A stretch of DNA of 64,000 nt from Escherichia coli (GCF_045037415.1 NZ_CP173438.1); one strand, 5' to 3'; positions 1 through 19,982 are shown, counted from the stretch's first letter. Translations and numbers: made by a program. The notes: generated by a model from the letters alone, not told the origin.

Positions 1-428
1 ATAGCCGTTTAGGCACCCACGGCGGTCTGGCATTGATTTTTGTGGTACTGGCAAAGATTCTGGTGTTAAGCGAGTTGGCTCTGCGTGGCGAACCGATCCT
101 TGCATCGCTGGCGGCAGCATGTGCGGTCAGCCGCGGGACTGCCGCATTATTGATGTATCGTCATCGTTATGCGCGGGAAGAAGGGCTTGGCAATGTGTTC
201 ATTGGCAAAATTGATGGGCGACAAACCTGCGTCACACTCGGCTTAGCCGCTATTTTTGCTGCCGTATTATTGCCGGGTATGCATGGTGTGGCTGCTATGG
301 TGGTGACGATGGTGGCGATTTTCATCCTCGGTCAGCTTCTCAAACGTACGCTGGGCGGGCAAACGGGCGATACGCTGGGAGCAGCCATAGAGTTTGGTGA
401 ACTGGTTTTCCTGCTGGCACTGCTATAA
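1..428 (+). CDS. cobS: Cobalamin synthase (adenosylcobinamide-GDP ribazoletransferase), C-terminal part; gene enters from upstream of window
   Basis: Frame is open from the window start to the stop at 426-428; hydrophobic C-terminus recalled as CobS; immediately upstream of cobT as in E. coli cobUST. Confidence 0.85.
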
Positions 429-439
429 AGAGACGTGAC

Positions 440-1519
440 ATGCAAATACTTGCCGATTTACTGAATACGATCCCAGCCATCAATTCTGCCGCTATGTCGC
501 GTGCACAACGGCATGTTGACGGGTTACTCAAACCTGTTGGTAGCCTGGGAAAGCTGGAGGCGCTTGCCATACAACTGGCAGGAATGCCGGGGTTGAATGG
601 CATACCGCATGTGGGCAAAAAAGCAGTACTGGTTATGTGTGCCGATCACGGCGTCTGGGAGGAAGGGGTCGCTATTTCTCCAAAAGAAGTGACAGCCATA
701 CAGGCTGAAAATATGACCCGTGGAACAACCGGCGTGTGTGTGCTGGCAGCACAAGCGGGCGCTAACGTCCACGTAATTGATGTTGGTATTGATACTGCTG
801 AGCCTATCCCCGGGCTTATCAACATGCGTGTCGCACGAGGTAGCGGCAATATTGCTTCAGCTCCGGCAATGAGTCGCCGTCAGGCTGAAAAGTTGCTTTT
901 GGACGTCATATGTTATACGCGGGAGCTGGCAAAAAACGGTGTCACGCTGTTTGGTGTAGGTGAACTGGGGATGGCAAACACGACACCGGCAGCGGCAATA
1001 GTCAGCACAATCACTGGCCGGGATCCTGAAGAAGTGGTTGGGATTGGCGCAAACCTGCCGACAGATAAACTGGCTAATAAAATTGATGTTGTGCGTCGGG
1101 CGATTACGTTGAATCAACCAAATCCTCAGGATGGTGTTGATGTCCTGGCAAAAGTGGGTGGATTTGATTTGGTCGGAATAGCTGGAGTGATGTTAGGTGC
1201 TGCTTCCTGCGGTTTACCCGTGTTGCTGGATGGATTTCTTTCTTATGCTGCTGCGCTCGCAGCCTGCCAGATGTCTCCTGCAATCAAACCGTATCTCATT
1301 CCTTCTCACTTGTCGGCAGAAAAAGGCGCGCGTATAGCGCTCTCGCATTTGGGGCTGGAGCCTTATCTCAATATGGATATGCGTTTAGGTGAGGGGAGTG
1401 GTGCAGCTCTGGCGATGTCCATCATCGAAGCTGCTTGTGCGATATACAACAACATGGGCGAACTTGCTGCCAGTAATATTGTTCTACCGGGGAATACGAC
1501 TTCTGATTTGAACAGCTAA
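440..1519 (+). CDS. cobT: Nicotinate-nucleotide--dimethylbenzimidazole phosphoribosyltransferase
   Basis: 359-aa ORF with ATG at 440; length and sequence match CobT; synteny cobS-cobT-erfK. Confidence 0.9.
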
Positions 1520-1580
1520 AAACGAAAAGTCTGATAAAAGCTATACTTATCGGATAGTATTCGCGACTTAGGAAAGGGAC

Positions 1581-2516
1581 ATGATGCGTCGTGTAAATAT
1601 TCTTTGCTCATTTGCTCTGCTTTTTGCCAGCCAAAATAGCCTGGCGGTAACTTATCCATTACCTCCAGAGGGTAGCCGTTTAGTGGGGCAGTCGCTTACT
1701 GTAACTGTTCCTGATCACAATACTCAGCCGCTGGAGACTTTTGCCGCACAATACGGGCAAGGGTTAAGTAATATGCTGGAAGCGAATCCGGGCGCTGATG
1801 TTTTTTTGCCGAAGCCTGGCTCACAACTCACCATTCCGCAGCAACTGATTTTGCCCGCCACTGTTCGTAAAGGGATTGTGGTTAACGTCGCTGAAATGCG
1901 TCTTTATTACTATCCGCCAGACAGTAATACAGTGGAAGTCTTTCCTATTGGTATCGGCCAGGCTGGGCGAGAAACCCCGCGTAACTGGGTGACTACCGTT
2001 GAACGTAAACAAGAAGCACCAACCTGGACGCCAACGCCGAACACCCGGCGCGAATATGCGAAACGAGGGGAGAGTTTGCCCGCATTTGTTCCTGCGGGGC
2101 CCGATAACCCCATGGGGCTGTACGCGATTTATATTGGCAAGTTGTATGCCATCCACGGTACCAATGCCAATTTTGGTATTGGGCTCCGCGTAAGTCAGGG
2201 CTGTATTCGTCTGCGTAATGACGATATCAAATATCTGTTTGATAATGTTCCTGTAGGCACTCGTGTACAAATTATTGATCAGCCAGTGAAATACACAACG
2301 GAACCGGATGGTTCAAAGTGGCTGGAAGTTCATGAGCCGCTGTCGCGCAATCGTGCAGAATATGAGTCTGACCGAAAAGTGCCATTGCCGGTAACCCCAT
2401 CTTTGCGGGCGTTTATCAACGGGCAAGAAGTTGATGTAAATCGCGCAAATGCTGCGTTGCAACATCGATCGGGAATGCCTGTGCAAATTAGTTCTGGTTC
2501 AAGACAGATGTTTTAA
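1581..2516 (+). CDS. ldtA: L,D-transpeptidase ErfK/LdtA (YkuD family)
   Basis: 311-aa ORF with signal peptide and YkuD-type catalytic region (HGT...GCIRL); position between cobT and tRNA-Asn as in E. coli. Confidence 0.85.
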
Positions 2517-2538
2517 GAGCGTTGGTAATTAGAAAGTA

Positions 2539-2566
2539 AAAAGCCTGCTCGAAAGCAGGCTTTTTT
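2539..2566 (+). terminator. Rho-independent terminator downstream of erfK
   Basis: GC hairpin aaagcctgctcgaaagcaggc followed by a T-run. Confidence 0.6.
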
Positions 2567-2571
2567 GAATT

Positions 2572-2647
2572 TGGCTCCTCTGACTGGACTCGAACCAGTG
2601 ACATACGGATTAACAGTCCGCCGTTCTACCGACTGAACTACAGAGGA
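2572..2647 (-). tRNA. asnV: tRNA-Asn (GUU)
   Basis: 76-nt reverse-complement match to the E. coli tRNA-Asn sequence (tcctctgtagttcagtcggtagaacggcggactgttaatccgtatgtcactggttcgagtccagtcagaggagcca); copy name by synteny. Confidence 0.9.
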
Positions 2648-2973
2648 ATCGTGTGAACGGGGCGCATATTAATGGCAGTGCATGGTGATGTCAAAGGGTG
2701 AAATGCATTTTTTTGTTTGTTTGCTGACAATTTCAACAAAGTGGTGAGCTTTCAATCTTATTGGGTAATGAACCATCGTGGTGCATACCCCCCTTTTATA
2801 GGGCAGGTGAATGCGACTGCTGATAAAAAGGGCCAATGACGAATCTATCATAATCTCTTATTTGACAGTTGGTTAGCTTGCGCATCAACGCTAAAATAGA
2901 ACTGGCAAGCATCTTGCATTCTGGTTGTAAGTAATGGCGGCACTTGGGCCGATTCTTAAAAACCGGAGGCAAC

Positions 2974-3891
2974 ATGAACTTCAGACGCCTGAAATACTTC
3001 GTAAAAATTGTAGATATTGGTAGCCTGACCCAGGCTGCTGAAGTATTGCATATCGCACAACCAGCGCTCAGCCAGCAGGTTGCCACACTGGAAGGTGAGT
3101 TAAATCAACAGCTTTTGATTCGCACAAAACGGGGCGTTACGCCAACAGGCGCCGGAAAAATTCTCTATACCCATGCACGGGCCATTTTACGTCAGTGTGA
3201 GCAGGCCCAACTGGCGGTGCATAACGTTGGTCAGTCATTATCGGGGCAAGTCTCGATTGGCTTTGCGCCAGGAACCGCTGCGTCATCCATCACCATGCCC
3301 TTATTACAGGCGGTTCGCGCTGAATTCCCGGAGGTCGTTATCTATCTTCATGAAAATAGTGGTGCAGTGCTTAACGAAAAACTGATAAATCACCAACTCG
3401 ATATGGCGGTGATTTATGAGCATTCCCCTGTGGCTGGGGTATCCAGTCAGGCTTTGCTGAAAGAAGATCTTTTCCTGGTAGGAACTCAAGATTGCCCGGG
3501 GCAAAGCGTTGATGTTAATGCTATTGCGCAAATGAACCTTTTTCTCCCCAGTGATTACAGCGCTGTTAGACTTCGTGTTGATGAGGCTTTTTCCCTACGG
3601 CGGCTCACGGCAAAAGTCATTGGTGAAATTGAGTCTATTGCCACGCTTACCGCAGCGATTGCCAGCGGCATGGGCGTTGCAGTATTACCTGAATCGGCTG
3701 CGCGTTCGTTATGTGGCGCAGTAAATGGGTGGATGTCACGCATTACCACTCCTTCAATGAGTCTCTCTTTGTCCTTAAATTTACCCGCCAGAGCAAACTT
3801 GTCACCACAGGCACAGGCAGTGAAAGAGTTGTTAATGTCAGTGATTAGTTCTCCAGTGATGGAAAAAAGGCAGTGGCAATTGGTGAGCTAA
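2974..3891 (+). CDS. nac: LysR-family nitrogen assimilation control protein Nac
   Basis: N-terminus MNFRRLKYFVKIVDIGSLTQAAEVLHIAQPALSQQV matches Nac; GGAGG RBS before ATG at 2974; the track ORF starts 30 nt upstream at a non-native start. Confidence 0.9.
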   Translation: MNFRRLKYFVKIVDIGSLTQAAEVLHIAQPALSQQVATLEGELNQQLLIRTKRGVTPTGAGKILYTHARAILRQCEQAQLAVHNVGQSLSGQVSIGFAPGTAASSITMPLLQAVRAEFPEVVIYLHENSGAVLNEKLINHQLDMAVIYEHSPVAGVSSQALLKEDLFLVGTQDCPGQSVDVNAIAQMNLFLPSDYSAVRLRVDEAFSLRRLTAKVIGEIESIATLTAAIASGMGVAVLPESAARSLCGAVNGWMSRITTPSMSLSLSLNLPARANLSPQAQAVKELLMSVISSPVMEKRQWQLVS

Positions 3892-3992
3892 GCGTTATAT
3901 CGGGATGGAATAAGATGCGGGTTTTTATTATTTGTTATGCCGGGCATTAGACTTTAACAATAACGGGATATCTGAACTGCCCGGAGTTTACC

Positions 3993-4943
3993 GTGAATTT
4001 CCAACAACTAAAGATAATCCGCGAGGCTGCACGTCAGGATTACAACCTGACAGAGGTTGCGAATATGCTTTTTACCTCACAGTCAGGCGTTAGCCGTCAT
4101 ATTCGGGAACTGGAGGATGAACTTGGCATCGAAATATTTGTTCGACGAGGTAAGCGACTGCTGGGCATGACTGAACCGGGCAAAGCATTACTGGTCATTG
4201 CAGAACGCATTCTGAATGAAGCCAGTAATGTTCGTCGGCTCGCAGACCTGTTTACCAACGATACGTCTGGCGTTCTCACTATTGCAACGACGCATACTCA
4301 GGCACGTTATAGCTTGCCTGAGGTCATTAAAGCTTTTCGCGAACTTTTCCCGGAGGTTCGGCTGGAGCTAATCCAGGGTACACCACAGGAAATTGCGACG
4401 TTGTTGCAAAATGGCGAAGCTGATATTGGTATCGCCAGCGAGCGTTTGAGTAATGACCCGCAGCTCGTCGCCTTCCCGTGGTTTCGTTGGCACCATAGTT
4501 TGCTTGTTCCACTCGATCATCCCTTGACGCAAATTACACCGTTGACGCTGGAATCAATAGCGAAGTGGCCGTTAATTACTTACCGACAGGGGATTACGGG
4601 GCGCTCACGCATTGATGACGCATTTGCCCGCAAAGGTTTGCCGGCAGATATTGTATTAAGTGCACAGGATTCTGATGTCATTAAAACCTATGTTGCTCTT
4701 GGGCTTGGGATCGGATTAGTTGCCGAACAATCCAGCGGCGAACAAGAGGAAAAGAATTTAATCCGCCTGGATACGCGGCATCTTTTCGATGCTAATACTG
4801 TCTGGTTGGGACTGAAGCGAGGGCAACTTCAGCGTAACTATGTCTGGCGCTTTCTGGAACTTTGTAATGCAGGACTGTCAGTTGAGGATATCAAGCGCCA
4901 GGTGATGGAAAACAGTGAAGAGGAAATTGATTATCAGATATAG
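3993..4943 (+). CDS. cbl: LysR-family regulator Cbl (CysB-like)
   Basis: 316-aa ORF starting MNFQQLKIIREAARQDYNLTEVANMLFTSQSGVSRHIRELEDELGIEIF; nac-cbl tandem as in E. coli. Confidence 0.9.
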   Translation: MNFQQLKIIREAARQDYNLTEVANMLFTSQSGVSRHIRELEDELGIEIFVRRGKRLLGMTEPGKALLVIAERILNEASNVRRLADLFTNDTSGVLTIATTHTQARYSLPEVIKAFRELFPEVRLELIQGTPQEIATLLQNGEADIGIASERLSNDPQLVAFPWFRWHHSLLVPLDHPLTQITPLTLESIAKWPLITYRQGITGRSRIDDAFARKGLPADIVLSAQDSDVIKTYVALGLGIGLVAEQSSGEQEEKNLIRLDTRHLFDANTVWLGLKRGQLQRNYVWRFLELCNAGLSVEDIKRQVMENSEEEIDYQI

Positions 4944-4945
4944 CA

Positions 4946-4972
4946 AAAAGCCCGCTATAAAAGCGGGCTTTT
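4946..4972 (+). terminator. Rho-independent terminator downstream of cbl
   Basis: Hairpin aaaagcccgctataaaagcgggctttt. Confidence 0.55.
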
Positions 4973-4980
4973 CAGAAATT

Positions 4981-5056
4981 TGGCTCCTCTGACTGGACTC
5001 GAACCAGTGACATACGGATTAACAGTCCGCCGTTCTACCGACTGAACTACAGAGGA
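4981..5056 (-). tRNA. asnU: tRNA-Asn (GUU)
   Basis: Second reverse-complement copy of the 76-nt tRNA-Asn sequence. Confidence 0.9.
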
Positions 5057-5216
5057 ATCGCTGTTGAGGCACATCTTAACGGCGAAAAATATTTTGTCAA
5101 ACCCGATTTTTAAATTTCCCAACTGTTTGCCGTTTCTATCAACAGTTTGTTGCATTTGCAGACAATTTGTTGGCGAAAATCTTTGCAGCTTTGCTGATTC
5201 TCCCTCATCATTTGAA

Positions 5217-6704
5217 ATGTGGTTTCACTTTCTGCAATTAAGGTCGGCTTTGAATATCTCCTCTGCTTTACGCCAGGTTGTTCACGGCACTCGCTGGCAC
5301 TCTAAACGCAAGAGCTACAAAGTGTTGTTCTGGCGCGAGATAACCCCGCTTGCTGTTCCTATCTTCATGGAGAACGCCTGTGTCCTGTTGATGGGGGTCC
5401 TGAGCACTTTTCTGGTCAGCTGGCTGGGAAAAGATGCGATGGCCGGCGTGGGGTTGGCGGACAGCTTCAATATGGTCATTATGGCTTTTTTTGCAGCTAT
5501 CGATCTTGGTACTACTGTCGTTGTAGCATTTAGTCTCGGTAAGCGAGATCGACGACGAGCGAGGGTGGCGACGCGGCAGTCATTGGTGATCATGACGTTG
5601 TTTGCCGTACTGTTGGCAACGCTAATTCATCATTTTGGCGAACAAATTATTGATTTCGTCGCGGGTGATGCCACGACAGACGTTAAAGCACTGGCGTTGA
5701 CTTATCTGGAGCTGACCGTATTCAGTTATCCAGCAGCTGCCATCACTCTTATTGGTAGCGGGGCACTTCGTGGTGCAGGGAATACGAAAATACCGCTACT
5801 GATTAACGGTAGCCTGAATATTCTTAATATTATTATTAGCGGCATATTGATTTACGGCCTTTTCTCCTGGGCGGGACTGGGATTTGTCGGGGCTGGGTTG
5901 GGTTTAACCATTTCTCGTTATATTGGCGCAGTTGCAATTTTGTGGGTGCTGGCGATTGGTTTTAATCCTGCGCTAAGGATTTCGTTAAAGAGCTATTTTA
6001 AACCGCTGAATTTTAGCATTATCTGGGAAGTCATGGGGATTGGTATTCCAGCGAGTGTCGAATCAGTGTTATTTACCAGTGGTCGGTTATTAACCCAAAT
6101 GTTCGTTGCCGGGATGGGGACCAGCGTTATTGCCGGAAATTTTATCGCGTTCTCAATTGCGGCTCTTATCAACTTACCCGGAAGTGCGCTCGGTTCTGCT
6201 TCTACGATCATTACAGGCCGAAGGTTGGGGGTAGGGCAGATAGCGCAAGCAGAGATTCAGTTGCGGCATGTGTTCTGGCTGTCCACTCTTGGATTAACGG
6301 CCATCGCCTGGCTAACGGCTCCCTTTGCCGGGGTTATGGCATCGTTTTACACCCAGGATCCACAGGTTAAACACGTCGTTGTGATTCTGATTTGGCTAAA
6401 TGCTTTATTTATGCCTATTTGGTCCGCCTCATGGGTGCTACCCGCTGGATTTAAAGGTGCTCGTGATGCCCGTTACGCCATGTGGGTTTCGATGTTGAGC
6501 ATGTGGGGTTGTCGGGTTGTAGTCGGTTATGTGCTGGGAATCATGCTTGGCTGGGGTGTGGTTGGTGTCTGGATGGGAATGTTTGCCGACTGGGCTGTGC
6601 GGGCCGTGCTGTTTTACTGGCGAATGGTTACTGGACGTTGGCTATGGAAATACCCTCGATCCGAGCCGCAAAAGTGTGAAAAAAAGCCAGTTGTGTCGGA
6701 ATAA
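5217..6704 (+). CDS. yeeO: MATE-family multidrug/flavin efflux transporter YeeO
   Basis: Polytopic membrane protein with MATE-like repeats; track ORF starts at 5064, but the start at 5217 (MWFHF...) gives the 495-aa length recalled for YeeO; start uncertain. Confidence 0.8.
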   Translation: MWFHFLQLRSALNISSALRQVVHGTRWHSKRKSYKVLFWREITPLAVPIFMENACVLLMGVLSTFLVSWLGKDAMAGVGLADSFNMVIMAFFAAIDLGTTVVVAFSLGKRDRRRARVATRQSLVIMTLFAVLLATLIHHFGEQIIDFVAGDATTDVKALALTYLELTVFSYPAAAITLIGSGALRGAGNTKIPLLINGSLNILNIIISGILIYGLFSWAGLGFVGAGLGLTISRYIGAVAILWVLAIGFNPALRISLKSYFKPLNFSIIWEVMGIGIPASVESVLFTSGRLLTQMFVAGMGTSVIAGNFIAFSIAALINLPGSALGSASTIITGRRLGVGQIAQAEIQLRHVFWLSTLGLTAIAWLTAPFAGVMASFYTQDPQVKHVVVILIWLNALFMPIWSASWVLPAGFKGARDARYAMWVSMLSMWGCRVVVGYVLGIMLGWGVVGVWMGMFADWAVRAVLFYWRMVTGRWLWKYPRSEPQKCEKKPVVSE

Positions 6705-6804
6705 ACGACAAAATGCAGATTATTTCAGCAAACGATTTCAAATTTAAAAAACAGGCTTTGACATTGTGGGTGGGCATCGCTAATATTCGCCTCGTTCTCA
6801 CGAT

Positions 6805-6880
6805 TCCTCTGTAGTTCAGTCGGTAGAACGGCGGACTGTTAATCCGTATGTCACTGGTTCGAGTCCAGTCAGAGGAGCCA
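6805..6880 (+). tRNA. asnW: tRNA-Asn (GUU)
   Basis: Direct 76-nt tRNA-Asn sequence on the plus strand; in inverted orientation relative to asnU, flanking yeeO. Confidence 0.9.
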
Positions 6881-6943
6881 AATTTTAGTTTTGAGACATC
6901 TCTATGAGTCTCAGGACAGTTAAAAAATAAAAATTATTTTTAC

Positions 6944-6977
6944 CCGGTCACTTTGTAAAAAAGTGGCCGGGTTTTTG
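6944..6977 (+). terminator. Putative rho-independent terminator after asnW
   Basis: Hairpin cccggtcactttgtaaaaaagtggccggg followed by ttttt. Confidence 0.5.
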
Positions 6978-7333
6978 ATTTCTGTGTTTCGTGCGCTTAA
7001 TCGAGTCTCACGCTTCAGTGAGCAAATTGCCCCTCCCCAACAGACATCACGATTCACAAGGTCAAAAATTCTGTTCCATGAAGTACCGTACAAAGATAAA
7101 GAGAAAAATGCCTTATGCGGGATGTAGCTGTCGCGTCTTTATCGGGAAACTATACGTAATTGCCACTTTGTCTTCGGTAATCAGAAAAAGAAGACCTGCC
7201 ATTTTAATAAATATTATTTCTCTGGGAACGGGGATTTTTTATAAGCAATATGACGAGTTAAACATTATATTTTTATAAGGATTATATGAGATTAAAGAAA
7301 TCTGCCATAAAGACAGATTTCTTTAACATATAA

Positions 7334-8050
7334 TTAGAGATTTGCGACGTTATGATAAACTTTTTGTACATCGTCGTCATCTTCAAGGGCATCAACAAGC
7401 CCTTCAAAGATTTCTAAATCTTCTGGGGAAAGCTCAACTTCAGATTGAGCAATCATTTCTAATTCTGTTGTTGAGAACTCAGTGATTCCAGCTGCTTTTA
7501 GCGCCGCGATTCCTTTATGAAGGTCAGTAGGTTCAGTATAAATAACAATATTACCTTCTTCTTCAGTTACATCACGAACATCAACTTCAGCTTCAAGCAA
7601 AATTTCAAAAATATGGTCAGGGTCTGTTCCTTTAAATACAATCACACCCGTATTGTCAAACATATAGCTGACAGAACCTGCCGCTCCGATATTGCCGCCT
7701 TTTTTATTGAAAATTGTGCGAACGTTAGCAATCGTACGGTTAACATTTGAAGTTAATGTCTCAGCGATAATCATTGAGCCATTAGGACCAAAGCCTTCAT
7801 AACGTCCCTGCACGAACGTTTCATCTCCGCCGCCTTTGGCTTTATCAATTGCTTTATCAATAACGTGCTTTGGAACTTGTGCTTGTTTTGCACGTTCAAT
7901 AACGAATTTTAAAGATGTGTTTAATTCTGGATCGGGTTCACCTTGTTTGGCAGCAGCATAGATTTCTACACCGAATTTTGCATAAATTTTAGACGTTGCA
8001 CCGTCTTTAGCCGTTTTTTTAGCAACAATATTGGCCCATTTACGTCCCAC
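7334..8050 (-). CDS. yeeN: YebC/PmpR-family transcriptional regulator YeeN
   Basis: 238-aa ORF starting [27 protein letters not shown], typical of the YebC family; synteny asnW-yeeN-amn. Confidence 0.9.
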
Positions 8051-8392
8051 TGGAATGATCTCCTCGAAAATTTATTTACATTACTGGTAAATCGTTAACA
8101 TGTGTTAATTCGGCATATTATATCATAACAGGAAAAATCTCGTCTATTAGAAATAAAAATATTCTAAAGCCATAATCTTATATTTAATTTTATAAAAACT
8201 AATGTTGTTGGCGGGATTTTTTATAATTGTGTTTTGAAAGCATACTTGCTTTTAATATGTGGAAATCATTAAGACGATAATAAAACTCGCATCTGCCCAA
8301 GGAAGCAAACAGCCCGCGTTTATTGCAGGCTATTTGCCAGATGTCTTACTTAATCCTTCACATCTATTTCTGATAAGAAGGTTCATAACTTA

Positions 8393-9847
8393 TTATCGGA
8401 ACGGCGGCTCATTAAAGGTTCGTAATTTACGTGAATGCAGTCGGTCGCCTTCTGCGCGCAGCAAATCGATCGCCCGAATGCCAATTTGCAGGTGTTCGGA
8501 AATAGCGCCTTCATAAAAACGGTTAGCCTGGCCGGGAAGCTTAATCTCACCATGTAACGGTTTATCTGAAACACACAGTAGTGTCCCGTATGGCACGCGG
8601 AAACGATATCCTTGCGCGGCAATGGTTGCACTTTCCATATCAATTGCTACGGCCCGGCTTAAGTTAAAACGAAGTGCAGAAGCTGAGTAACGTAACTCCC
8701 AGTTCCTGTCATCTGTGGTTACCACCGTGCCAGTACGTAACCGCTGTTTGACTTCTTCACCAGGCCTGCCGCTGACTAACTTGGTAGCGTCATAAAGCGC
8801 ACGTTGCACTTCAGCAATGCTCGGAATAGGAATATCGGGCGGCAGAACCGCATCAAGAACGTGGTCATCGCGTAAATAAGCGTGTGCAAGGACATAATCT
8901 CCAATGGCCTGGCTTTCACGTAATCCGCCACAGTGACCAATCATCAACCAGACATCCGGGCGTAGCACTGCCAGATGATCGCAGATGGTTTTAGCATTGG
9001 ACGGTCCCACGCCAATATTCACCAGAGTAATACCCTGACCATCAGCGGTAATTAAATGCCATGCTGGCATCTGGTGTTTTTTCCATGCAAGGTCGGAAAT
9101 GGCTTCTTCTGGCGCTTCGGTTTCGGCAGTGATCCAGTTCCCGCCAGCACAAGAAAGGGCAATGTAGGGACTATCAGGATCGAGGATCTGGCTGCATCCC
9201 CAACGAACGAATTCATCCACATAACGTGTGTAGTTGGTAAACAAGACGAACGGTTGAAAATGTTCTACTGGCGTACCGGTATAATGGCGCAACCGTGCGA
9301 GGGAAAAATCAACCCGGCGAGCATCAAAATGCGATAGCGGGGAGAATTCCGTTGGATGATAAATGCCGTCTGCAGTTTCATCGCCAATTTGCGCCAGTTC
9401 TGTTGTCGGGAAGTAGCGAGTTAACCCAGCGCTCATTGAGCGATCAAGTGTCAATTCAGAGCCATCGATGACATAAGGATAAGGGATTTCATGCTGCGAG
9501 GGTTGCACCGAGATATGCGCACCATAATCCTGATACAGCAACGTAAGTTGTTCATTGAGATACGAACGAAAGAGAGTAGGGCGAGTAATCGTGGTGGTGT
9601 AGCTGCCTGCGTGGGTAAAACGACCAAATGCGCGCGTTTTGGGGGGATTAGTTGTGCTACCGTCCCAGGTTACGGTCAGTGATGGATAGACAAAAAGACC
9701 TTGTTTGCGGGCGTTTTCATCAGGTAATTCGCCACTTGTAATATATTTGCCAATGGCGTTGCGTAAAGCAACTACAGATTGCTCATACAGCGCGTCGAGT
9801 TTATCCAGTGCCTGAGCTGGGGTCAGACCGGAGCCCTTATTATTCAT
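8393..9847 (-). CDS. amn: AMP nucleosidase
   Basis: Start at MNNKGSGLTPAQALDKLDALYEQS gives 484 aa; AGGAG-like RBS upstream; the track ORF (to 10003) has a 52-codon N-terminal extension that is probably not translated. Confidence 0.9.
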   Translation of the reverse strand: MNNKGSGLTPAQALDKLDALYEQSVVALRNAIGKYITSGELPDENARKQGLFVYPSLTVTWDGSTTNPPKTRAFGRFTHAGSYTTTITRPTLFRSYLNEQLTLLYQDYGAHISVQPSQHEIPYPYVIDGSELTLDRSMSAGLTRYFPTTELAQIGDETADGIYHPTEFSPLSHFDARRVDFSLARLRHYTGTPVEHFQPFVLFTNYTRYVDEFVRWGCSQILDPDSPYIALSCAGGNWITAETEAPEEAISDLAWKKHQMPAWHLITADGQGITLVNIGVGPSNAKTICDHLAVLRPDVWLMIGHCGGLRESQAIGDYVLAHAYLRDDHVLDAVLPPDIPIPSIAEVQRALYDATKLVSGRPGEEVKQRLRTGTVVTTDDRNWELRYSASALRFNLSRAVAIDMESATIAAQGYRFRVPYGTLLCVSDKPLHGEIKLPGQANRFYEGAISEHLQIGIRAIDLLRAEGDRLHSRKLRTFNEPPFR

Positions 9848-9948
9848 GTGTGTCTCCTGTTCCATACAATTACCGCACATCCGATAGTATGTCACAGGAA
9901 TGTGAAACAAAAGTATAAGGCGAAGATCGGATGATCTTCGCCAGGCTA

Positions 9949-11265
9949 TCACGAGCGTTGATTGTCTTTCATCAATAAAGCGGTCATTGCAGAAATCAGG
10001 CATCCAGCCAGCAAATAAATGGCGACGCTATGCCAGTTCCCGGCAAAGTAAGTGATGAGTGCAGCGGCAATAAAAGGTGTAAATCCACCGCCAACCACAC
10101 TGGCAACCTGATAACCGACTCCAGCACCACTGTAGCGATAACTGGCACCAAACATTTCGGTAAACATCGGTTGTTGCACACACACCACCATGTCATGCGC
10201 AATGTTTGCCAGCATTATGGAGAAGAAAACTATCCAGAAAATAGATTGTGCTTCAAGCGCCATAAAGAAAGGAAATGCGCTCAACGTTCCGATCAACGCG
10301 CCTGTAATATAAACCCTGCGCCGACCAAAACGATCGGCAAGCCAGGCAAAACAGGGAATTGTCAGGCAGCTTAATCCACCTACCAGCAAACCAATATTAA
10401 GGAAAAGTTCGCGCGGTAACCCCATATTCTGGGTTGAATAATTAAGTGCAAAGGCAGTAACAATGTACATCGTCAGCAACTCGCACAGTCGTAGTGCAAT
10501 AATCTTCAGGAAAGCACCGGGATGTCGTAACAGAGCTTCGATAACCGGGATGCGTTTTTTCGCGGCCGCTTGATTATGTTGCTGTTGTTCAAATTCCGCG
10601 GACTCCTCCATGCCATTGCGCACCCACAATGCTCCCAGTACCAGTACGATGCTAAACAGGAAAGGAATGCGCCAGCCCCAGCTTAAAAACTGTTCGTCAG
10701 TCGTCATCATACTGATCAATGAAACCAGTCCGGTTGAAAGCAGTAAACCTACACCGTAGCCAACTTGTACACCGCTACTGTAAAAGGCTTTTTTATTTTT
10801 CGGCGCACTTTCAACGGAAAGCAACGCTGCGCCTCCCCATTCGCCGCCGACGGCAAATCCCTGAATGGCACGCAGTGTCACCAGCAAAATAGGTGCCCAC
10901 CACCCAATGGTCGAGAATGAAGGAAGAATACCAATTAAGGCTGTCGCGATGCCCATCATCCAGACGGTCAGCATTAACATGCGCTTACGTCCCAGTCGGT
11001 CGCCAAAGTGACCGAAAATGACACCGCCGAGCGGTCGGAAAAGGAAGCCGACACCAAAGGTGGCAAATGCGGCGAGCGTTCCCATCGCCGGGCTTACTTG
11101 CGGGAAAAACTCGCGATTAAACACCAGTGCGGCGGTAATGCCATAGAGTAGAAAATCATACCAGTCGACGACGGCACCAGCGAAACTGCCTAACGCAGCT
11201 CGTCGGGCGCGACTTAACGAAAGCGTCCCTTCATCGGGACGAGTGGAGATGAGCGTGGAGTCCAT
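9949..11265 (-). CDS. shiA: Shikimate transporter (MFS)
   Basis: 438-aa 12-TM MFS protein starting MDSTLISTRPDEGTLSLSRARRAALGSFAG; synteny amn-shiA. Confidence 0.9.
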   Translation of the reverse strand: MDSTLISTRPDEGTLSLSRARRAALGSFAGAVVDWYDFLLYGITAALVFNREFFPQVSPAMGTLAAFATFGVGFLFRPLGGVIFGHFGDRLGRKRMLMLTVWMMGIATALIGILPSFSTIGWWAPILLVTLRAIQGFAVGGEWGGAALLSVESAPKNKKAFYSSGVQVGYGVGLLLSTGLVSLISMMTTDEQFLSWGWRIPFLFSIVLVLGALWVRNGMEESAEFEQQQHNQAAAKKRIPVIEALLRHPGAFLKIIALRLCELLTMYIVTAFALNYSTQNMGLPRELFLNIGLLVGGLSCLTIPCFAWLADRFGRRRVYITGALIGTLSAFPFFMALEAQSIFWIVFFSIMLANIAHDMVVCVQQPMFTEMFGASYRYSGAGVGYQVASVVGGGFTPFIAAALITYFAGNWHSVAIYLLAGCLISAMTALLMKDNQRS

Positions 11266-11516
11266 AATGATCCTGTTTGTACTGTCTTTTTATAATTAGT
11301 ATGGAAAAGGTAACTCACATTGCCGTCGATCTATAAACGAACCTTATGAGACTACCTCGACAGAGCGCATCTGCAAATGATTTTATGGCTGATTAGCGGC
11401 AACATGAAAAATTCGATGGAAGATGAAAGCGCAGGAGTTGCTGGTGTTGTTTAAGGATTAAGCAGAGGGCCCACAGGTTCGAGATATGAAACATAAAAGT
11501 CCGCATATGCACAAAA

Positions 11517-12632
11517 TTGCACCCTGATGATTCTGATAGACTGCATTGCATTATAACCAGTAGGGAGGCGAGGTTAGTTATGTTTTTAGTATCATTGTTG
11601 AGACGTATTGCATTTAGTTACTACGATTATAAAACTTATAATTTTAATATTGAAAAAACAGACTTTGTTGTCATACATATTCCCGATCAGATTGGCGATG
11701 CTATGGCCATCTTTCCTGTTATTCGGGCGCTTGAATTGCATAAAATTAAGCATCTATTAATTGTTACGTCGACAATTAATTTAGAAGTCTTTAATGCGCT
11801 CAAACTTGAACAGACTAAATTAACATTAGTCACAATGACTATGCAGGATCACGCAACATTAAAAGAAATAAAAGATTTAGCGAAGAACATAACACTGCAA
11901 TATGGTACGCCGGATCTTTGTATAGAGGCGATGCGTAAAAAGAACCTGAAAACGATGATATTTATCAGTCAGTTGAAAGCAAAAACGAATTTCCAGGTCG
12001 TCGGTTTAACCATGAAGTGCTATTCCCCTTTGTGTAAGAACGCGTCCCGGATGGATCAGAATCTCCGGGCTCCTGTACCCATGACATGGGCATTTATGAT
12101 GCGTGAGGCGGGTTTTCCGGCAGTCAGGTCAATATATGAATTGCCATTAAGCGATGATGTACTCGATGAGGTACGCGAGGAAATGCGATCGTTAGGATCT
12201 TACATTGCGCTCAATTTAGAAGGTAGCTCGCAGGAACGTACATTTTCATTATCGATTGCAGAAAATCTAATAGCAAAAATTCAAAGTGAAACAGATATTC
12301 CAATAGTGATCGTTTATGGACCCAAAGGGGAAGATAAAGCCAGGGCATTAGTGGATTGTTATAATAATGTCTACCGTTTATCCTTATCACCCTCGATTAA
12401 ACGTTCAGCAGCAATCATAAAAGATGCTTATATTGCAATAACTCCTGACACCTCAATATTACATATGGCAAGTGCCTATAATACCCCTGTTGTTGCAATT
12501 TATGCTGATTACAAAACGCGATGGCCCGCAATGGCCGATGTTTCGGAGTCAGTCGTCGTTGGGCAAAAAATTGACAATATAAGTCTGGATGAATTCGCAA
12601 AGGCATTAAAAAGTGTTTTGGCGAGAATTTGA
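11517..12632 (+). CDS. yeeL: Putative glycosyltransferase family 9 (heptosyltransferase-like) protein YeeL; appears intact here
   Basis: 371-aa ORF (possible true start at the ATG 63 nt downstream, preceded by GGGAGG) at the position between shiA and yeeJ; GT9 assignment is by recall, not computed. Confidence 0.65.
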   Translation: MHPDDSDRLHCIITSREARLVMFLVSLLRRIAFSYYDYKTYNFNIEKTDFVVIHIPDQIGDAMAIFPVIRALELHKIKHLLIVTSTINLEVFNALKLEQTKLTLVTMTMQDHATLKEIKDLAKNITLQYGTPDLCIEAMRKKNLKTMIFISQLKAKTNFQVVGLTMKCYSPLCKNASRMDQNLRAPVPMTWAFMMREAGFPAVRSIYELPLSDDVLDEVREEMRSLGSYIALNLEGSSQERTFSLSIAENLIAKIQSETDIPIVIVYGPKGEDKARALVDCYNNVYRLSLSPSIKRSAAIIKDAYIAITPDTSILHMASAYNTPVVAIYADYKTRWPAMADVSESVVVGQKIDNISLDEFAKALKSVLARI

Positions 12633-12759
12633 GGCAGTACTTATGCATAGTAATGCCGATCTGTTATGAACGGTGGTGTCATCAATACTCTGAGGCTGGT
12701 CAATCATCACAGAAAACCAGCCTTTGGATCAAAGCAATACTCACCGAAAATGATCATAG

Positions 12760-15657
12760 TCACACCGAACGCGATTCAGGAGGAACTGTTTGGTAAATAG
12801 CACCACCGGATCTTGGGGGCGCTGTGATTATTACAGTATTGCTATCACCGTCATTTTTGAATGTCACTTTACCAGTAGCATCAACGCCTACCCAGGAGGC
12901 CGAGCTTGAAAACGAATAATCAGCCGCCGTTTTTCCTGGTGCAAAGTTGTCATTATTCAACTGATAATACGCCCCGGTAAATCCCTGCGAAGGGAATGAA
13001 GCTGTCGGTAGGTTTGCACTATTCACTGACACTGTACCCGTCATTGGTCTGGTTTCCGCGCTAATGAATTCTATCGTGGTACTCAGACCCGCCTGATGAA
13101 CACCATTCAATACGGGGATCAGCGTTGCGATACCCTCTCCGCCTCCTGTAACAGTAGCTTTGTAATCACCGTTGATATTTTGACTGTAATCAATTGCGCT
13201 AATTTTCATATAGGGCACGTTTGTACCTGATTGCACAAATTCTATCCCTTAAGAAACTTTGATCGGATTGCCTGATATATCGTGCAGAACAAGATGTAGC
13301 TCAGCACTATCGGTAAAGTCCCCTTTCAGTGATGACTGGTTGTTCTTAAGGATGGACTGCGAGGCGTCTGCTGGGCCTGCCACTAGCGATATATCTACTG
13401 TTTGCATTCCACCTGCGCTTATGACTGCGCTTACAGTGACGCTCCCTGTTATCGCTCATCTCACGTTTGTTGTCGCGATTCCGTTTTGATCGGTCACGGC
13501 TGTTAATGACGTTAATGTGGTGGAGCCGCTTTTTAAGGCGAAGTACACAGTGAGACCTTCGATCAGGTTACCACTGCCATCCTCAACCGTTGCCTTTAAG
13601 GTACTTAAATCACTGTTGGTGGCGGCGATAGTCGACGGATCAGCGATAAAGCTAGCAACATGTGCGGTGCTTGGGTTGCCAGTAACCTTCACGGTTGTCT
13701 GTGTCTGTATTGTGACGCCGTTATGGAACGATGCAGTCACCGTATATGTACCGACTTTATTGCTGGTCAGAACGACTGGAGCCTGATCTGAAGAGTTGGT
13801 TCTCACTTTTCCGCCACTTAACGTCGCACCTTCTAGCGTTACGCTAAAGTTGATGACCTGACCCTCCACTGGAGTGCCATTTGCAGAGGTTAGCGTTGCC
13901 GTCAGAGTAGCGCCTTTAGGAGCATTGACACCGATAAGCGGACTGGACGTGAGTGTCAGTTTTTCATCAATAGCCTCCAGTTGTTTCTCAAGTGAAGCTC
14001 CATTCGCTAGGGATGCTTTTACAGTATACGAGCCGTTTCTTTCAGACGTCATGGTGACCTCGGCTACTCCCTGCGTATTAGTAGAGACCGTGTTCTGGCT
14101 GATGATCATTTGCGAGGATGGCGCTGCACTGAATGTCGCGGGTTGATGCGTCACCGGGTTGCCAAACTGGTCGTTAACGTGAGCTTTAACTGCTATGTCT
14201 TGTGCGACCATGACCTGACCTTCAGGTATCTCCTGACTGGTAATCGTCGCAGAATTAACATCTACCTTGGCATTCAGTAATCGCGAGATGACTTCAGTAG
14301 GTTTATCTGCCAGAGAGGCTGAAACTGTTTTTAGTCCGACCTCGGTGCTTGTCACAAGAATTTCAGCAAAAACCTGATCATCCGTTTCAACGCTGGTGCT
14401 GCTTAGCGTGACGGAGGTTCCACGGAAATTAACTTTTATACCTTCTACTGGGTTGCCGTTTCCATCAGTCACTGTTGCTTGTAGCCTGGTCATTCCAATG
14501 TTATTGGCGATGAAATTGTCCTCGGTAACGTTAAGATTAACCTGCGCAGTGAGCGTATCCGCAGTAAAGTTCACCACCAACTGCTCACTCTTACCGCCAA
14601 CCATCGATGCTGTCACGGTATGAGCGCCTGCTTTTGTACCTTTCAGCGTGACTTTCGCTTTGCCATCGGCATCAGTAACCGCTTTGTCGCCATCGCTCAG
14701 CGTGAAGTTCGCCTTCACATCTTCCGGTAGAGTAAATGTTACCTCAGTGTTGGCTATCGCATTGCCCTCTGTATCAGCGACGGTGCTGTTAGTGTCGTGA
14801 GATCGTTATTGTCGGCAATCACCGGATCCTTCGAGGCTGCCAGCGTGATTTCAGCATTCGTGACGTTCGGCACATAGTTCACTGTTTGTTGCATCGAATC
14901 GCCATTTTCGAGGGTTGCCGTCACGGGAGTTCTTCAGGCTGAAATCTTCATCCACGCCCAGCGTGATTCTTGCGGTACCGAAGCGGCTTAACCAGTCTGT
15001 CATTACCCCTGAAGCCTGAGAAGAGGCCCATCCACGTGCTATGTTTGCCGCTTGCTCGCTGTTCATATCTTCGGCGAGCAGAGATCCAATTAGCTGTGAA
15101 GTACTGGCTATCTGTTGCTCAAGGTTGCCACTGCTGTTACCCGGCGGCGGGGTTAAATTTTTTTCACTAACTTGTGCCTGGACATCCAGTTCATCACCCG
15201 GGCGGACATTACGAACAAACGTACGAAACTGGTTGAGTTTGCGTAACAGGGGGGTATCTATAATTTGTTGCACAGGACAAATATATCTGGCTTCTGTACA
15301 GAGTCTTAAATTTTGACCATAAATAAAACCGTCACTGTCAAGCATGCATAGTTTATCAAGTAGGTCTCCCACAAACTGCCTGAATTTTATTTTTCCATTA
15401 AAAGTTTGTATCTTCTTAAGTATCACAGGAGACTGGAAATAGATCGATAGTAGGATGTTGCCACTCAAGGCATGACGATAAATATCGCTAGGAGTAATTT
15501 TTTGTTTTATGGCTTTGGTAGTGATCTCAACTGCTTCCGTTATAGTGACCCATGTTGACATATAATGAGTTATAAGCAATGGCTGATATTTTTTTGACAT
15601 AATATTATCTCCTTCTACACAACAATTCGTTCCGTTAAGGAAAAAGATTGGTGTCAC
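12760..15657 (-). pseudogene. yeeJ: yeeJ-like inverse autotransporter adhesin remnant: large internal deletion plus frame breaks
   Basis: Three consecutive minus-strand ORFs (14851-15657, 13456-14718, 12760-13236) carry LysM-like N-terminal and Big-repeat C-terminal segments in different frames; total about 2.9 kb versus about 7 kb recalled for intact yeeJ. Confidence 0.65.
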
Positions 15658-16213
15658 AAGTATTTATTTATGATTAATCAGAGGGTTTATGACAGAGAAA
15701 AGGATGTATATTTCTGAGTAAACATGTACAGGCCTATGGGGTGACTATTTAATGAGTAAATGCCGAATGATTTTCGGGGTGATGATTATAACTTGAGGAA
15801 AAATCCCAGCGTGGTTTGAGTAGTGTACCTGAGTGATATTTGTGTTATGTATGCATTGATTGTAGCAGAATAAATATAGTTCAGGCTAGTATAGTTTATG
15901 GTAGCTATGAGAATATATAATCTATTTTACCTATAAAATAATTTATATGTATGGGGTTGTTTTTTTAGGTTGTTTGTCTGTGCTTTTATATTCTGGAGAT
16001 GTGCCTTGTATATAGGATTGTTTGTTGGTTGTATTTTTTAATGTTGCACTGTTGTGAATTTTTATTTTGATATGATTATTTCTTTAGTATAAGGAGAGAA
16101 AGGAACGAGAAAGTTAAATCTATTTATCCTAATCGCAATTTCATTGTTTAAATAATCACTATGGATTAATATTTTTGCGACTCTGCTGAGTTACTGGTTT
16201 TAACTAGTGGTGT

Positions 16214-16242
16214 AAAAGGGATACCTTTTCGGTATCCCTTTT
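16214..16242 (-). terminator. Terminator hairpin downstream of fyuA
   Basis: Inverted repeat aaaagggataccttttcggtatccctttt next to the fyuA stop. Confidence 0.5.
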
Positions 16243-16249
16243 ACAATAA

Positions 16250-18271
16250 TCAGAAGAAATCAATTCGCGTATTGATACCGACGGTGCGACCCATATTGAC
16301 CTGCGCGACGGCGCTGCTGCCGTTCATGTAGCCATAGGTACGGTAACGACGGTCGAACAGGTTATCGACATAGACGGAAATGTTCATCCGTTCAGTCGCC
16401 TGCCAGCCCAGGCTGCTGTCCAGGGTGGCATAGGTGCCTTGCCGCAACTGGTTGTCGCCATCGAAATAATGCGGCCCGACCAGATTAACCGCCAGTCGGG
16501 GCATCAGTGCGCCATAGCGCGTATCAATCACGCCGTTCACGCTGCTTCCCGCGCCATAACGTGGTACGAACGGCACCCGGTTACCGTGATACAACTCACT
16601 GTCATTGGTGAATTCGGAACGGATCACGTTGCCATTGATATCCCATGACCAGCCTGGCGCAAACCGCCACTTCGCTTCAAGCTCAACGCCGGTGGCGTCG
16701 GCTTTACCCGCATTGCTTAATGTCTGCATCCCGACCGGGCCAGAGTAAAGCTGCATGTCTTTGGTGTGGGTATAAAACGTCGCGGCTTGCAGCGTGACGT
16801 CAGCGGTTTCGTAGCGGGTGCCAAGTTCATAGTTGATGGATTTCTCGGCGACGAACGGTTTGGCATCAAGACCCGCAGTAGGCACGATGTTGTACCCGGA
16901 AGGTTTATATCCCTGGGCTACACGGGTATACACTCTCCAGTCATCGGTCAGCATATAGCCTGCGGATAGCTGCCCGAGCACCTGATCGTCATTGCTCTTA
17001 CCCTGGTCGCCAAACGGGTTGCCGAGCATGCTGCCGTGATATTGTGTACTGGATTTATCATGCGAGAAGCGCACGCCGCCGCCGATATCAAAACGATCGG
17101 TTAAATGCCAGGTCAGGTCACTGTATGCGGCCAGCGTTTCAGCGGTGGTATAGCCGGTACTGCTTAAATAAGGCATTGTCGGCATGTCGTAGGCTGAATT
17201 TAACTTCTCGCGGGTGTTCTGCCGGTACAGCCCAAACACCATATCAACGGTACGCGCATCGCCCAGGGTTGCAGCGCGCAGCTCCTGCACATCCTGATTC
17301 CAGCGCTGAGGCATATTGACGATTAACGAACCGGAAGGGAAGGTGCGCGAATAATGCTGCTGCTGCCAGGCGCTGATCAGGTTGAAAACCCAGTCATCGG
17401 TGGTGTATTTCCCACTCAGGGTCTGGCTGTCAGTGCAGCGCCGCATGTACGGGTCTGGTGAACCATCGCTGATCGACAGCTTACGGCCCTTAATATCATT
17501 CCATCCCACATAGGCGTCCTGGGTGGCGCGGGTACATTCGCGTGAGGCGGCAAAGCCCATTTCCCAGGGCTGATCGTCCGGCGCCAGACGCAGTTTCACA
17601 TTCCCTATGCTGGCGCGGGTGCCGCCTAAGTCATCGCTTCCCGTCGCGGGGTTAATCATGTCGCCGTCATCAACTTGGCGTAACAGGGTGACGCTGCCGT
17701 ACAGCAGGCCATCCTGAATGGGGCCGCTCAGGTTGAACTTACTTCGATAACTGTCGCGGCTACTGACGCCGCCTTCAATATAGCCGCGCGGCGTGCTGTC
17801 CGGCTGCTGGGTGACGATGTTGATGATCCCGCCCTGAGCGCTTTTGCCATATAACGTTCCCTGTGGGCCTCGCAGCAACTCCACGCTTTGCACATCGGTA
17901 AGCGCCTGGATGGTGTTGGTGGAAAGCTGAGGGACGCCATCGACATACAGGGTGACGGCGGGGTTATAGAAGTCCTGCGCTGAAGAGACGCCGCGTAGCG
18001 AGATCGTCGAAAAAAGCATGTTGCCGCTATTTTCAATATTGAGCCCGGGCAAGACTCTGGGGAGTTTGTCGCTGGCGGTGACGCCGGCGTCGCTTAATTC
18101 CGGCGCGCTGACAACAGTAGATGAGACGTTGTTGGCTGATGCCGAGCGGGAAGATTGTTTACTGGCGGTAACCACCAGCGTGCTTTCGTCTTGCTGTGAA
18201 GTCTGGGCATTAGCAATGGCGGGGAGCAATAATCCCCCCAAGGCCAGAGGATAAAGCCGTGTCATTTTCAT
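16250..18271 (-). CDS. fyuA: TonB-dependent outer-membrane receptor for ferric yersiniabactin/pesticin
   Basis: 673-aa ORF with signal peptide and a TonB-dependent-receptor C-terminal ...RIDFF motif; position at the end of the ybt cluster. Confidence 0.9.
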   Translation of the reverse strand: MKMTRLYPLALGGLLLPAIANAQTSQQDESTLVVTASKQSSRSASANNVSSTVVSAPELSDAGVTASDKLPRVLPGLNIENSGNMLFSTISLRGVSSAQDFYNPAVTLYVDGVPQLSTNTIQALTDVQSVELLRGPQGTLYGKSAQGGIINIVTQQPDSTPRGYIEGGVSSRDSYRSKFNLSGPIQDGLLYGSVTLLRQVDDGDMINPATGSDDLGGTRASIGNVKLRLAPDDQPWEMGFAASRECTRATQDAYVGWNDIKGRKLSISDGSPDPYMRRCTDSQTLSGKYTTDDWVFNLISAWQQQHYSRTFPSGSLIVNMPQRWNQDVQELRAATLGDARTVDMVFGLYRQNTREKLNSAYDMPTMPYLSSTGYTTAETLAAYSDLTWHLTDRFDIGGGVRFSHDKSSTQYHGSMLGNPFGDQGKSNDDQVLGQLSAGYMLTDDWRVYTRVAQGYKPSGYNIVPTAGLDAKPFVAEKSINYELGTRYETADVTLQAATFYTHTKDMQLYSGPVGMQTLSNAGKADATGVELEAKWRFAPGWSWDINGNVIRSEFTNDSELYHGNRVPFVPRYGAGSSVNGVIDTRYGALMPRLAVNLVGPHYFDGDNQLRQGTYATLDSSLGWQATERMNISVYVDNLFDRRYRTYGYMNGSSAVAQVNMGRTVGINTRIDFF

Positions 18272-18319
18272 TGTTGTGAGTCCCTGTAAGACGGCGAAAC
18301 GCCAAAAATACCGACAATG

Positions 18320-18395
18320 GTGAATTGAAAATGATAACTATTTCTAATAGTGGTGCTACCCGAAACGGGTTTATTTCAACCTGTTTCGGGTCGGT
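18320..18395 (-). promoter_or_regulatory. fyuA promoter region with Fur-box-like sequence and YbtA-type inverted repeats
   Basis: gaaaatgataactatttc resembles the Fur consensus; cccgaaacggg ... ctgtttcggg repeat resembles the repeats upstream of irp2. Confidence 0.55.
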
Positions 18396-18401
18396 TTGCG
18401 C

Positions 18402-19979
18402 TTATTGGGCAGAATGGCGATAACGGTCGACGGCGAGAGCCGTCAGGCGTTTTTTGTCTATCTTGCCGACGGCGGTGAGCGGCCAGTGGTCCAGAAACTC
18501 GATTTGGTCAGGAATTTTCCACGCGCTGAGCCCCATACGGGTCAGTTGTTGACGCAACTGCTGATAGTCAGTTGGCACCTGCTGCGCGATGATAAACGCG
18601 CAAATCCGCTCGCCAAGCAGCGTGTCCGGCGCGGCGACCACCGCGCAATCTTGCACTTCCGCTAAACGCAGCAGTGCCGATTCCACTTCAGCCGCGGCTA
18701 TTTTTTCTCCGGCGCGGTTGATCTGCTCTTTTATGCGTCCCTCAACGTGCAGGTTCCCCACCTCATCCAGCCTGACATTGTCGCCTGTGCGGTAAAACCC
18801 TTGCGCGGTAAAGGCCTGCGCGTTGTGGGCAGGGGCGCGGTAATAGCCCGAAATGGTATAAGGGCCGCGCGTTAACAATTGCCCGGTTTCGCCCGGCGCG
18901 ACGTCGTTCTCGTCTTGATCAACGATGCGGATTTCATCCAGAGGGGACAACGGGCGCCCCTGGCTGTGGAGAATGGTGGCATGCGGATCGTCCAGCCGGG
19001 TAAAACAGAGCAGGCCTTCCGCCATACCGAAAACCTGTTGCAGGGTACAGTCAAAGGTGGCGATAACCTGCTCAGCAAGCGTCGGGTCGAGCCGGGCGCC
19101 GCCTGCCTGAATGACGCGCAGCGACGAAAGGTCGCTGTCTTCCCACTCCCTGGCCTGCACCCATAATTGCGCCAGCGCCGGAACCAGGGCGACGTGAGTC
19201 ACTCTTTCCTGCGCGATTAAAGGCATCACCTCATCACAGCTGGCGCTGTCGGTCAGCACCACTTTTCCGCCGCAGGCAAGCGTTCCCAGAATACCGGGGC
19301 AGGCCAGCGGAAAGTTATGCGCCACCGGGAGGACGGCGAGATACACGCTCTGTTGGCTGATGCCGCACAGTTCAGCAGAAGCGCTGAAGTTATAGCTATA
19401 GTCGGCATGTCGGCGCGGGATGAGTTTGGGCGTGCCGGTTGTGCCGCCTGAGAGCAACAACAACGCGGTGGCGGAAACATCAGGCTGCGGCCATGCCTGT
19501 CGCTCACCGTGAAGGGAGAAGAGCGGCGTAAAATCGTCGCTCACGGTCTCTCCAGCGACCAGAACATGACGCAAGCAGGCGTGTTTGTGCGCCATCTGTC
19601 GGGCCAGCTCTGCGAGGTTTTCCCCGTGAATAACGTAAGCGACGGGTTGCGCCAGCTCAATCAGCGCGTCGATATCCAGAGCCCGTTGCGAGGGCATCGC
19701 CAGCACGGGGATAACGCCCAGTCTTAACAAGGCGAACAGCAGGGTAACAAACGCGTTGTCGTTGGGAAGCTGCACAATTACATGCTCCCCCGAACGCAAA
19801 CCCAGTGATGACAGACCTGCGGCAAGTTCGTCAACTTGTGCATCAAGCGCGCTGTAGGTTAACGACCCCTTTGCATCAACGACGGCAATTCGCGAGGCAT
19901 AACGGGCCGCCCAGTGGCGCAACTGTTCGGCAATGGGTAAGGGATACTGTTCAATCAGAGATTCAAAGGAAGAATTCAT
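18402..19979 (-). CDS. ybtE: Salicyl-AMP ligase (adenylation enzyme of yersiniabactin synthesis)
   Basis: 525-aa ORF with adenylate-forming enzyme motifs (LLSGGTTGTPKLI, YRTGD); operon position. Confidence 0.9.
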   Translation of the reverse strand: MNSSFESLIEQYPLPIAEQLRHWAARYASRIAVVDAKGSLTYSALDAQVDELAAGLSSLGLRSGEHVIVQLPNDNAFVTLLFALLRLGVIPVLAMPSQRALDIDALIELAQPVAYVIHGENLAELARQMAHKHACLRHVLVAGETVSDDFTPLFSLHGERQAWPQPDVSATALLLLSGGTTGTPKLIPRRHADYSYNFSASAELCGISQQSVYLAVLPVAHNFPLACPGILGTLACGGKVVLTDSASCDEVMPLIAQERVTHVALVPALAQLWVQAREWEDSDLSSLRVIQAGGARLDPTLAEQVIATFDCTLQQVFGMAEGLLCFTRLDDPHATILHSQGRPLSPLDEIRIVDQDENDVAPGETGQLLTRGPYTISGYYRAPAHNAQAFTAQGFYRTGDNVRLDEVGNLHVEGRIKEQINRAGEKIAAAEVESALLRLAEVQDCAVVAAPDTLLGERICAFIIAQQVPTDYQQLRQQLTRMGLSAWKIPDQIEFLDHWPLTAVGKIDKKRLTALAVDRYRHSAQ

Positions 19980-19982
19980 GCG

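Follow-up and report, generated by a model that had tools for sequence, protein, structure and literature searches.

Recurrent inversion of the yeeO segment between identical tRNA-Asn genes in Escherichia coli

Introduction

In Escherichia coli and Salmonella, opposed copies of the rRNA operons, of IS elements or of tufA and tufB give rise to inversions by homologous recombination. Identical stable-RNA or housekeeping genes serve there as crossover sites, and the rearranged chromosomes are viable and are found as polymorphisms between strains; the repeats measure 1-5 kb and the inverted regions hundreds of kb to Mb. Invertase switches, such as fimS with FimB/FimE, or Hin, also place a segment within inverted repeats and have two orientations. 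tRNA-Asn genes are attachment sites for islands that encode P4-type integrases (the yersiniabactin HPI at asnT, pks, ICEEc1/ICEKp1) and that insert by site-specific recombination. The pks island has been located at asnW, asnU or asnV (PMC8209727), and a 4.3-kb inversion of yeeO-asnU-cbl-nac (gltC) between asnV and asnW has been described in pks-positive phylogroup B2 E. coli, where it is associated with acquisition of this island (PMC8209727, PMC8461471).

Here we analyse a stretch of 64,000 nucleotides of E. coli DNA (GCF_045037415.1, NZ_CP173438.1; hereafter the window), in which yeeO is bracketed by asnU and asnW. The inversion that this pair permits has the same locus and the same identical tRNA-Asn repeats as end points as the published asnV-asnW inversion, but the latter involves a larger segment and another pair of copies, is tied to one island-bearing lineage and is absent from the window. 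Compared with the rRNA operon, IS and tuf inversions, the repeat is much shorter (85 nt) and so is the segment (1.7 kb), from which we would expect a rarer event with little effect on chromosome architecture. As for the P4-integrase islands, the window has an island and its integrase 3' of asnT, and other genomes have islands at other copies; whereas these elements insert by site-specific recombination, the yeeO inversion would need only the repeat. Finally, in contrast to fimS and Hin, the yeeO segment has no dedicated recombinase, its repeats consist of functional genes, the flip uncouples no promoter from its gene, and one orientation is dominant.

Results

Four identical tRNA-Asn genes, two of which bracket yeeO

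ARAGORN identified four tRNA-Asn(GTT) genes in the window, namely asnV (2572-2647, minus strand), asnU (4981-5056, minus strand), asnW (6805-6880, plus strand) and asnT (46698-46773, minus strand), each of which scored 72.6 bits with the Rfam tRNA model RF00005 (gathering score 29). When compared by script, all four 76-nt sequences proved to be one identical string. The sequence-only reading of this DNA had described four identical copies within 45 kb, with asnV and asnT as two further copies beside the pair around yeeO, and it had both the coordinates and the strands right; measured from end to end, the four copies span 44.2 kb. The 17-nt 3' end of the tRNA occurs four times in the window, against 0.00 occurrences expected in shuffles, which rules out chance. 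Upstream, about 25 nt are alike in asnV, asnW and asnT, and the region upstream of asnU is different.

The same reading had taken asnU and asnW to be identical inverted repeats of 76 nt on either side of yeeO. A repeat finder, whose output was rechecked, extended this to a perfect inverted repeat of 85 nt, with arms at 4976-5060 and 6801-6885 that are 100% complementary and 1,740 nt apart. The remaining five pairs of tRNA-Asn genes have perfect runs of 81-89 nt in common.

The DNA between the arms (5061-6800) contains yeeO (5217-6704, plus strand), which encodes a MATE-family efflux transporter of 495 aa that matches the EmmdR/YeeO equivalog model NF007562 at 907.9 bits and the Pfam family PF01554 (MatE). 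A longer ORF of 546 aa (5064-6704) was considered as yeeO and dismissed: annotation places the start of the 495-aa product at 5217, and the longer frame extends into the promoter region of asnU. Both tRNA genes are transcribed outward from this 1.74-kb segment, and matches to the promoter consensus lie inside it for asnU (TTGACA-16-TAAGAT, 5073-5100, minus strand) and for asnW (TTGACA-17-TAATAT, 6758-6786, plus strand). Beyond the segment there is a terminator-like hairpin 3' of asnW (6942-6972, plus strand) and, by eye, a hairpin after asnU that is common to cbl (approximately 4946-4975).

GC skew on the plus strand is positive (+0.054 overall), from which we infer that yeeO in its native orientation is co-directional with replication and that a flipped yeeO would be head-on. 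As a separate observation, three of the four tRNA-Asn genes (2572-2647, 4981-5056 and 46698-46773) lie on the minus strand, so if the plus strand is leading, as the skew indicates, these highly expressed genes would run head-on to replication, an orientation that is unusual among tRNA genes.

The locus is the standard asn cluster of a putative B2-like strain

The interval between asnV and asnU holds two genes for LysR-type regulators, nac (2974-3891, plus strand) and cbl (3993-4943, plus strand), identified from their ORFs and from the annotation of same-register loci. To the right of asnW lies its native flank, yeeN (YebC/PmpR family, 7334-8050, minus strand), and mtfA is located past asnT, on the 5' side of that gene. 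The names asnV, asnU, asnW and asnT fit the gene order ldtA-Asn-nac-cbl-Asn-yeeO-Asn-yeeN of a near-identical annotated genome. The locus is thus the standard cluster of the K-12 type, ldtA-asnV-nac-cbl-asnU-yeeO-asnW-yeeN-amn-shiA...asnT-mtfA, in which asnW alone is on the strand opposite to the other three copies, as in K-12.

In this near-identical genome, that of strain AREA_494, the annotation reads cobS-cobT-ldtA-Asn(-)-nac-cbl-Asn(-)-yeeO(+)-Asn(+)-yeeN(-)-amn-shiA, followed by a family-9 glycosyltransferase gene, yeeJ remnants and then fyuA, ybtE, ybtT, ybtU and irp1. This genome is identical to the window in the three segments compared between asnV and shiA and 100% identical over 7000-20000, bar one extra IS1 in AREA_494. 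The flanking segments are moreover 99.9% identical to Nissle 1917 and NU14, suggesting that the window comes from a phylogroup B2-like strain without pks.

A fixed yersiniabactin island occupies asnT

On the 3' side of asnT lies the yersiniabactin HPI (16250-46697, the low-coordinate boundary being approximate), with fyuA, ybtE/T/U, irp1, irp2, ybtA/P/Q/X/S and int. Its P4-type tyrosine integrase (420 aa, 45274-46536, minus strand; domains Arm-DNA-bind_3, Phage_int_M and Phage_integrase) lies directly against the 3' end of asnT, and the G+C content of the island is 58.4%, compared with 46.4% for the core. At the distal end of the island we found no direct repeat of the tRNA 3' end: allowing up to two mismatches, the 17-mer matches only the four tRNA genes in the window. 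The island is accordingly a truncated, fixed form that lacks the flanking direct repeats of an intact one, and the missing distal copy agrees with the fixed form of the island known in E. coli. The earlier claim that only asnT is occupied also stands: on their 3' sides, asnV, asnU and asnW still have their native neighbours, ldtA, cbl and yeeN, respectively.

Other features of this region were recorded. The interval 12700-16250 is a degenerate far border of the island, with remnants of yeeJ (inverse autotransporter) but without a further copy of the 3' end of the tRNA; in the closest complete genomes this interval carries an extra IS1, which is absent from the window. Within the island, a direct repeat of 42 nt (88% identical) is found at 18354-18395 and 37638-37679, that is, in the fyuA-ybtE and irp2-ybtA intergenic regions; it holds an inverted repeat (ACCCGAAACGGG...) and seems to resemble the YbtA-binding repeats of yersiniabactin promoters. 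Three further families of direct repeats (D2-D4, between 24440 and 37076; 61-72% identical, with spacings of approximately 7.5 and 4.1 kb) fall within the giant ORFs irp1 and irp2, as expected of repeated synthetase modules.

Further downstream, ARAGORN reported a 'tRNA-???' at 47765-47855 (plus strand), where Rfam reported no tRNA at the gathering score. This is a tRNA-Ser gene; its position is that of a 90-nt tRNA-Ser, probably serU, in the annotation of other genomes. By eye, an extra T gives it an 8-nt anticodon loop, and its variable arm is a variant one. The exact 91-nt form was found in 10 of the 5,426 complete genomes, which makes a one-off sequencing error unlikely, and 90-nt forms are present in most. 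Its 3' half may have been supplied by the adjacent prophage-like region, which begins directly after the gene (47908-64000) and includes a tyrosine integrase (47908-48933, minus strand), a protein with a partial match to exodeoxyribonuclease VIII (49195-51669, minus strand) and the small RNAs C4, isrK, DicF and sok (52763-60814). Genomes without this region have yodB and zinT directly after the tRNA-Ser gene.

yeeO is inverted in a minority of complete genomes

The inverted isomer of 4400-7500 was built in silico, and both this and the native sequence were searched against all 5,426 complete RefSeq E. coli genomes; a genome was counted when one aligned place covered at least 80% of the query, a coverage attainable by the matching orientation alone. 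The native order cbl-asnU-yeeO-asnW was present in 5,348 genomes (98.6%). In 35 genomes (0.65%) the yeeO segment alone was inverted between asnU and asnW, with full-length alignment to the predicted isomer. In the remaining 43 neither query reached 80%, and two of these gave no match at all. The proposal that the asnU/asnW repeat is a substrate for inversion is therefore supported, and the orientation of yeeO, which had been put forward as the character to compare across genomes, is not invariant.

Annotation of nine inverted genomes, SHP24 included, reads cbl(+)-Asn(-)-yeeO(-)-Asn(+)-yeeN(-). In the eight inverted genomes sampled for sequence comparison, the inversion takes in everything from one tRNA gene to the other, a length of 1,748 bp in seven genomes and of 1,745 bp in the eighth. 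The breakpoints thus lie within the tRNA repeats and both orientations exist in natural genomes, so this is a repeat-mediated polymorphism.

The contiguous asnW-yeeN junction is lacking from about 540 genomes (4,808 with the junction versus 5,348 native-order matches), in keeping with asnW being often occupied or rearranged.

The inversion arose in several backgrounds

The eight sampled inverted loci represent at least six haplotypes: one shared by SHP24 and EH10-18-47, which are mutually identical, one shared by LR-25 and CRECJHTL34, which are mutually near-identical, and one each in TC24, LD27-1, LR-06 and AHB21. These haplotypes differ at 6-44 sites in the 1,748-bp yeeO segment and at up to 112 sites in 4.3 kb of the right flank, about the same divergence as that between each of them and the window.

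Three inverted haplotypes (SHP24, TC24 and LD27-1) were then re-inverted in silico and searched again. Re-inverted SHP24 was 100.0% identical over 3.9 kb to ST130, a non-inverted strain. Re-inverted TC24 was 99.7% identical to non-inverted genomes, with matches of at least 99% in 1,503 genomes. For re-inverted LD27-1 no close relative was found, inverted or not, the top match being 98.7%. Since two inverted backgrounds have non-inverted relatives that are 99.7-100% identical, the inversion recurs, and the comparison of the eight sampled loci indicates that it arose several times. Similar search scores suggest, however, that the SHP24 haplotype accounts for roughly twenty of the 35 inverted genomes, which probably inherited a single event. 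With most of the 35 probably of one haplotype, to judge from these scores and from the identity of SHP24 with EH10-18-47, the number of independent events would be well below 35.

Other copies of tRNA-Asn are also rearranged or occupied

The published inversion between asnV and asnW was recovered as well: its nac-Asn-yeeN junction was present in 266 of the 5,426 genomes, among them Nissle 1917 and NU14. Its other junction, ldtA-Asn followed by the 3' end of yeeO, was found in one genome (SE15); in pks-positive strains the island lies, on our reading of PMC8461471, between ldtA and that tRNA gene.

An inversion between asnW and asnT, recognised by a yeeN-Asn-mtfA junction, was seen in a single genome (1/5,426), that of ET5, whose annotation (locus 1-17700) reads yeeJ-like(+)-GT9(-)-shiA(+)-amn(+)-yeeN(+)-Asn(-)-mtfA(-), giving an inversion of approximately 13 kb. 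Island-like genes, including an AlpA-family regulator and several hypothetical proteins, lie approximately 14 kb from the junction, past the inverted genes and on the side where the second junction is expected.

Islands were found at copies other than asnT, as the sequence-only reading had anticipated in calling each copy a potential integration target. In TC24 (locus 12700-18080) the yeeO flip coexists with an integrase/RHS island at asnV. In E12 (locus 1-6076) an island with an integrase and a type III restriction-modification system adjoins the Asn gene to the left of yeeO, and the 6 kb fetched from that side do not include nac-cbl. The published positions of pks at asnW, asnU or asnV (PMC8209727) agree with this.

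Homologous recombination probably flips the segment

We consider it likely, with good though not full confidence, that the locus is a standard asn cluster with the HPI at asnT in which a rare crossover within the identity between asnU and asnW flips the yeeO segment, most probably by RecA-dependent homologous recombination. In the proposed sequence of events, the identical asnU and asnW bodies would pair as the 85-nt perfect inverted repeat, and a rare crossover inside it would turn the segment round. Both tRNA-Asn genes would emerge intact from the exchange, as would yeeO, which would retain its own upstream region. Because asnU and asnW have identical bodies and the segment carries the promoter-like sites together with the complete yeeO gene, the flip probably alters only the direction of yeeO, which would change from co-directional with replication to head-on. 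Such a change is probably near-neutral, which would explain why the flip is scattered over unrelated backgrounds and why a lineage can retain it. The breakpoints within the repeats support homologous recombination, as does the absence of a recombinase among the flanking genes, which are cbl, yeeO and yeeN; since the repeat arms are identical, the exact crossover point cannot be mapped.

The P4-type integrases of the asn-tRNA islands (HPI, pks, ICEEc1-like) might instead produce the inversions, by recombining two tRNA-Asn genes of opposite orientation at an att core in their 3' ends. The 17-nt 3' core, which is the putative island att sequence, is present in all four genes, and the window encodes such an integrase; the literature links the asnV-asnW inversion, carried by the 266 genomes, to pks acquisition, and TC24 and ET5 both pair a rearrangement with nearby island-like genes. 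However, the normal partners in an integrase reaction are attP and attB, or attL and attR, not two attB sites. In the inverted strains EH10-18-47 and LD27-1, moreover, the 39-41 kb that were fetched showed neither an island nor an integrase at any of the four genes. A perfect repeat of 85 nt should in any case suffice for RecA-type recombination, and we regard an integrase origin as unlikely.

It is still less probable that misassembly at a short repeat accounts for the 35 inverted genomes. Several of the haplotypes (TC24, LD27-1, LR-06 and AHB21) are each represented by one sampled genome, but an 85-nt repeat and a 1.7-kb segment are far below the length of long reads and are bridged by ordinary paired reads. 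Independent laboratories also obtained the same inverted haplotypes, one from swine in Shanghai (SHP24) and from a human in Laos (EH10-18-47), and another in Ecuador (LR-25) and China (CRECJHTL34).

That the segment is a programmed phase-variation switch for yeeO or for one of the tRNA genes was rejected as barely credible: a gene-sized segment within perfect inverted repeats superficially resembles an invertible switch, but there is no dedicated invertase or other recombinase gene in or beside it (the nearest integrase, that of the island, is approximately 38 kb distant), and it is the tRNA genes that form the repeat arms. The segment includes the promoter-like sites and all of yeeO, so that inversion parts no promoter from its gene, and 98.6% of the genomes have a single orientation.

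Discussion

The asn tRNA cluster of E. coli is a known hotspot for the integration of islands, and inversion between Asn copies had already been published. The flip of yeeO alone, between asnU and asnW, is not described in PMC8209727 or PMC8461471, and our literature searches returned the asnV-asnW inversion and otherwise mostly papers on organelle genomes. Crossover between asnU and asnW by homologous recombination is the reading that we favour. The yeeO-only flip adds a little to a class of rearrangement that is already known, and it is probably neutral.

A bolder view would make the yeeO cassette a recurrent, possibly reversible inversion hotspot that flips measurably within cultures, the head-on form of which might alter yeeO expression, replication-transcription conflict or the stability of neighbouring asn-tRNA islands. 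We think this doubtful. If it were true, the cassette would be a small, hitherto undescribed structural polymorphism that affects the phenotype of E. coli.

What the present analysis contributes is a count of the yeeO-only flip, in 0.65% of 5,426 complete genomes and in several unrelated backgrounds, which is a modest addition. These counts show that 85 nt of identity are sufficient for recurrent natural inversions. For comparative genomics, and for the typing of islands by junction PCR, this means that neither the orientation of yeeO nor the labels 'asnU' and 'asnW' can safely be treated as constant in E. coli.
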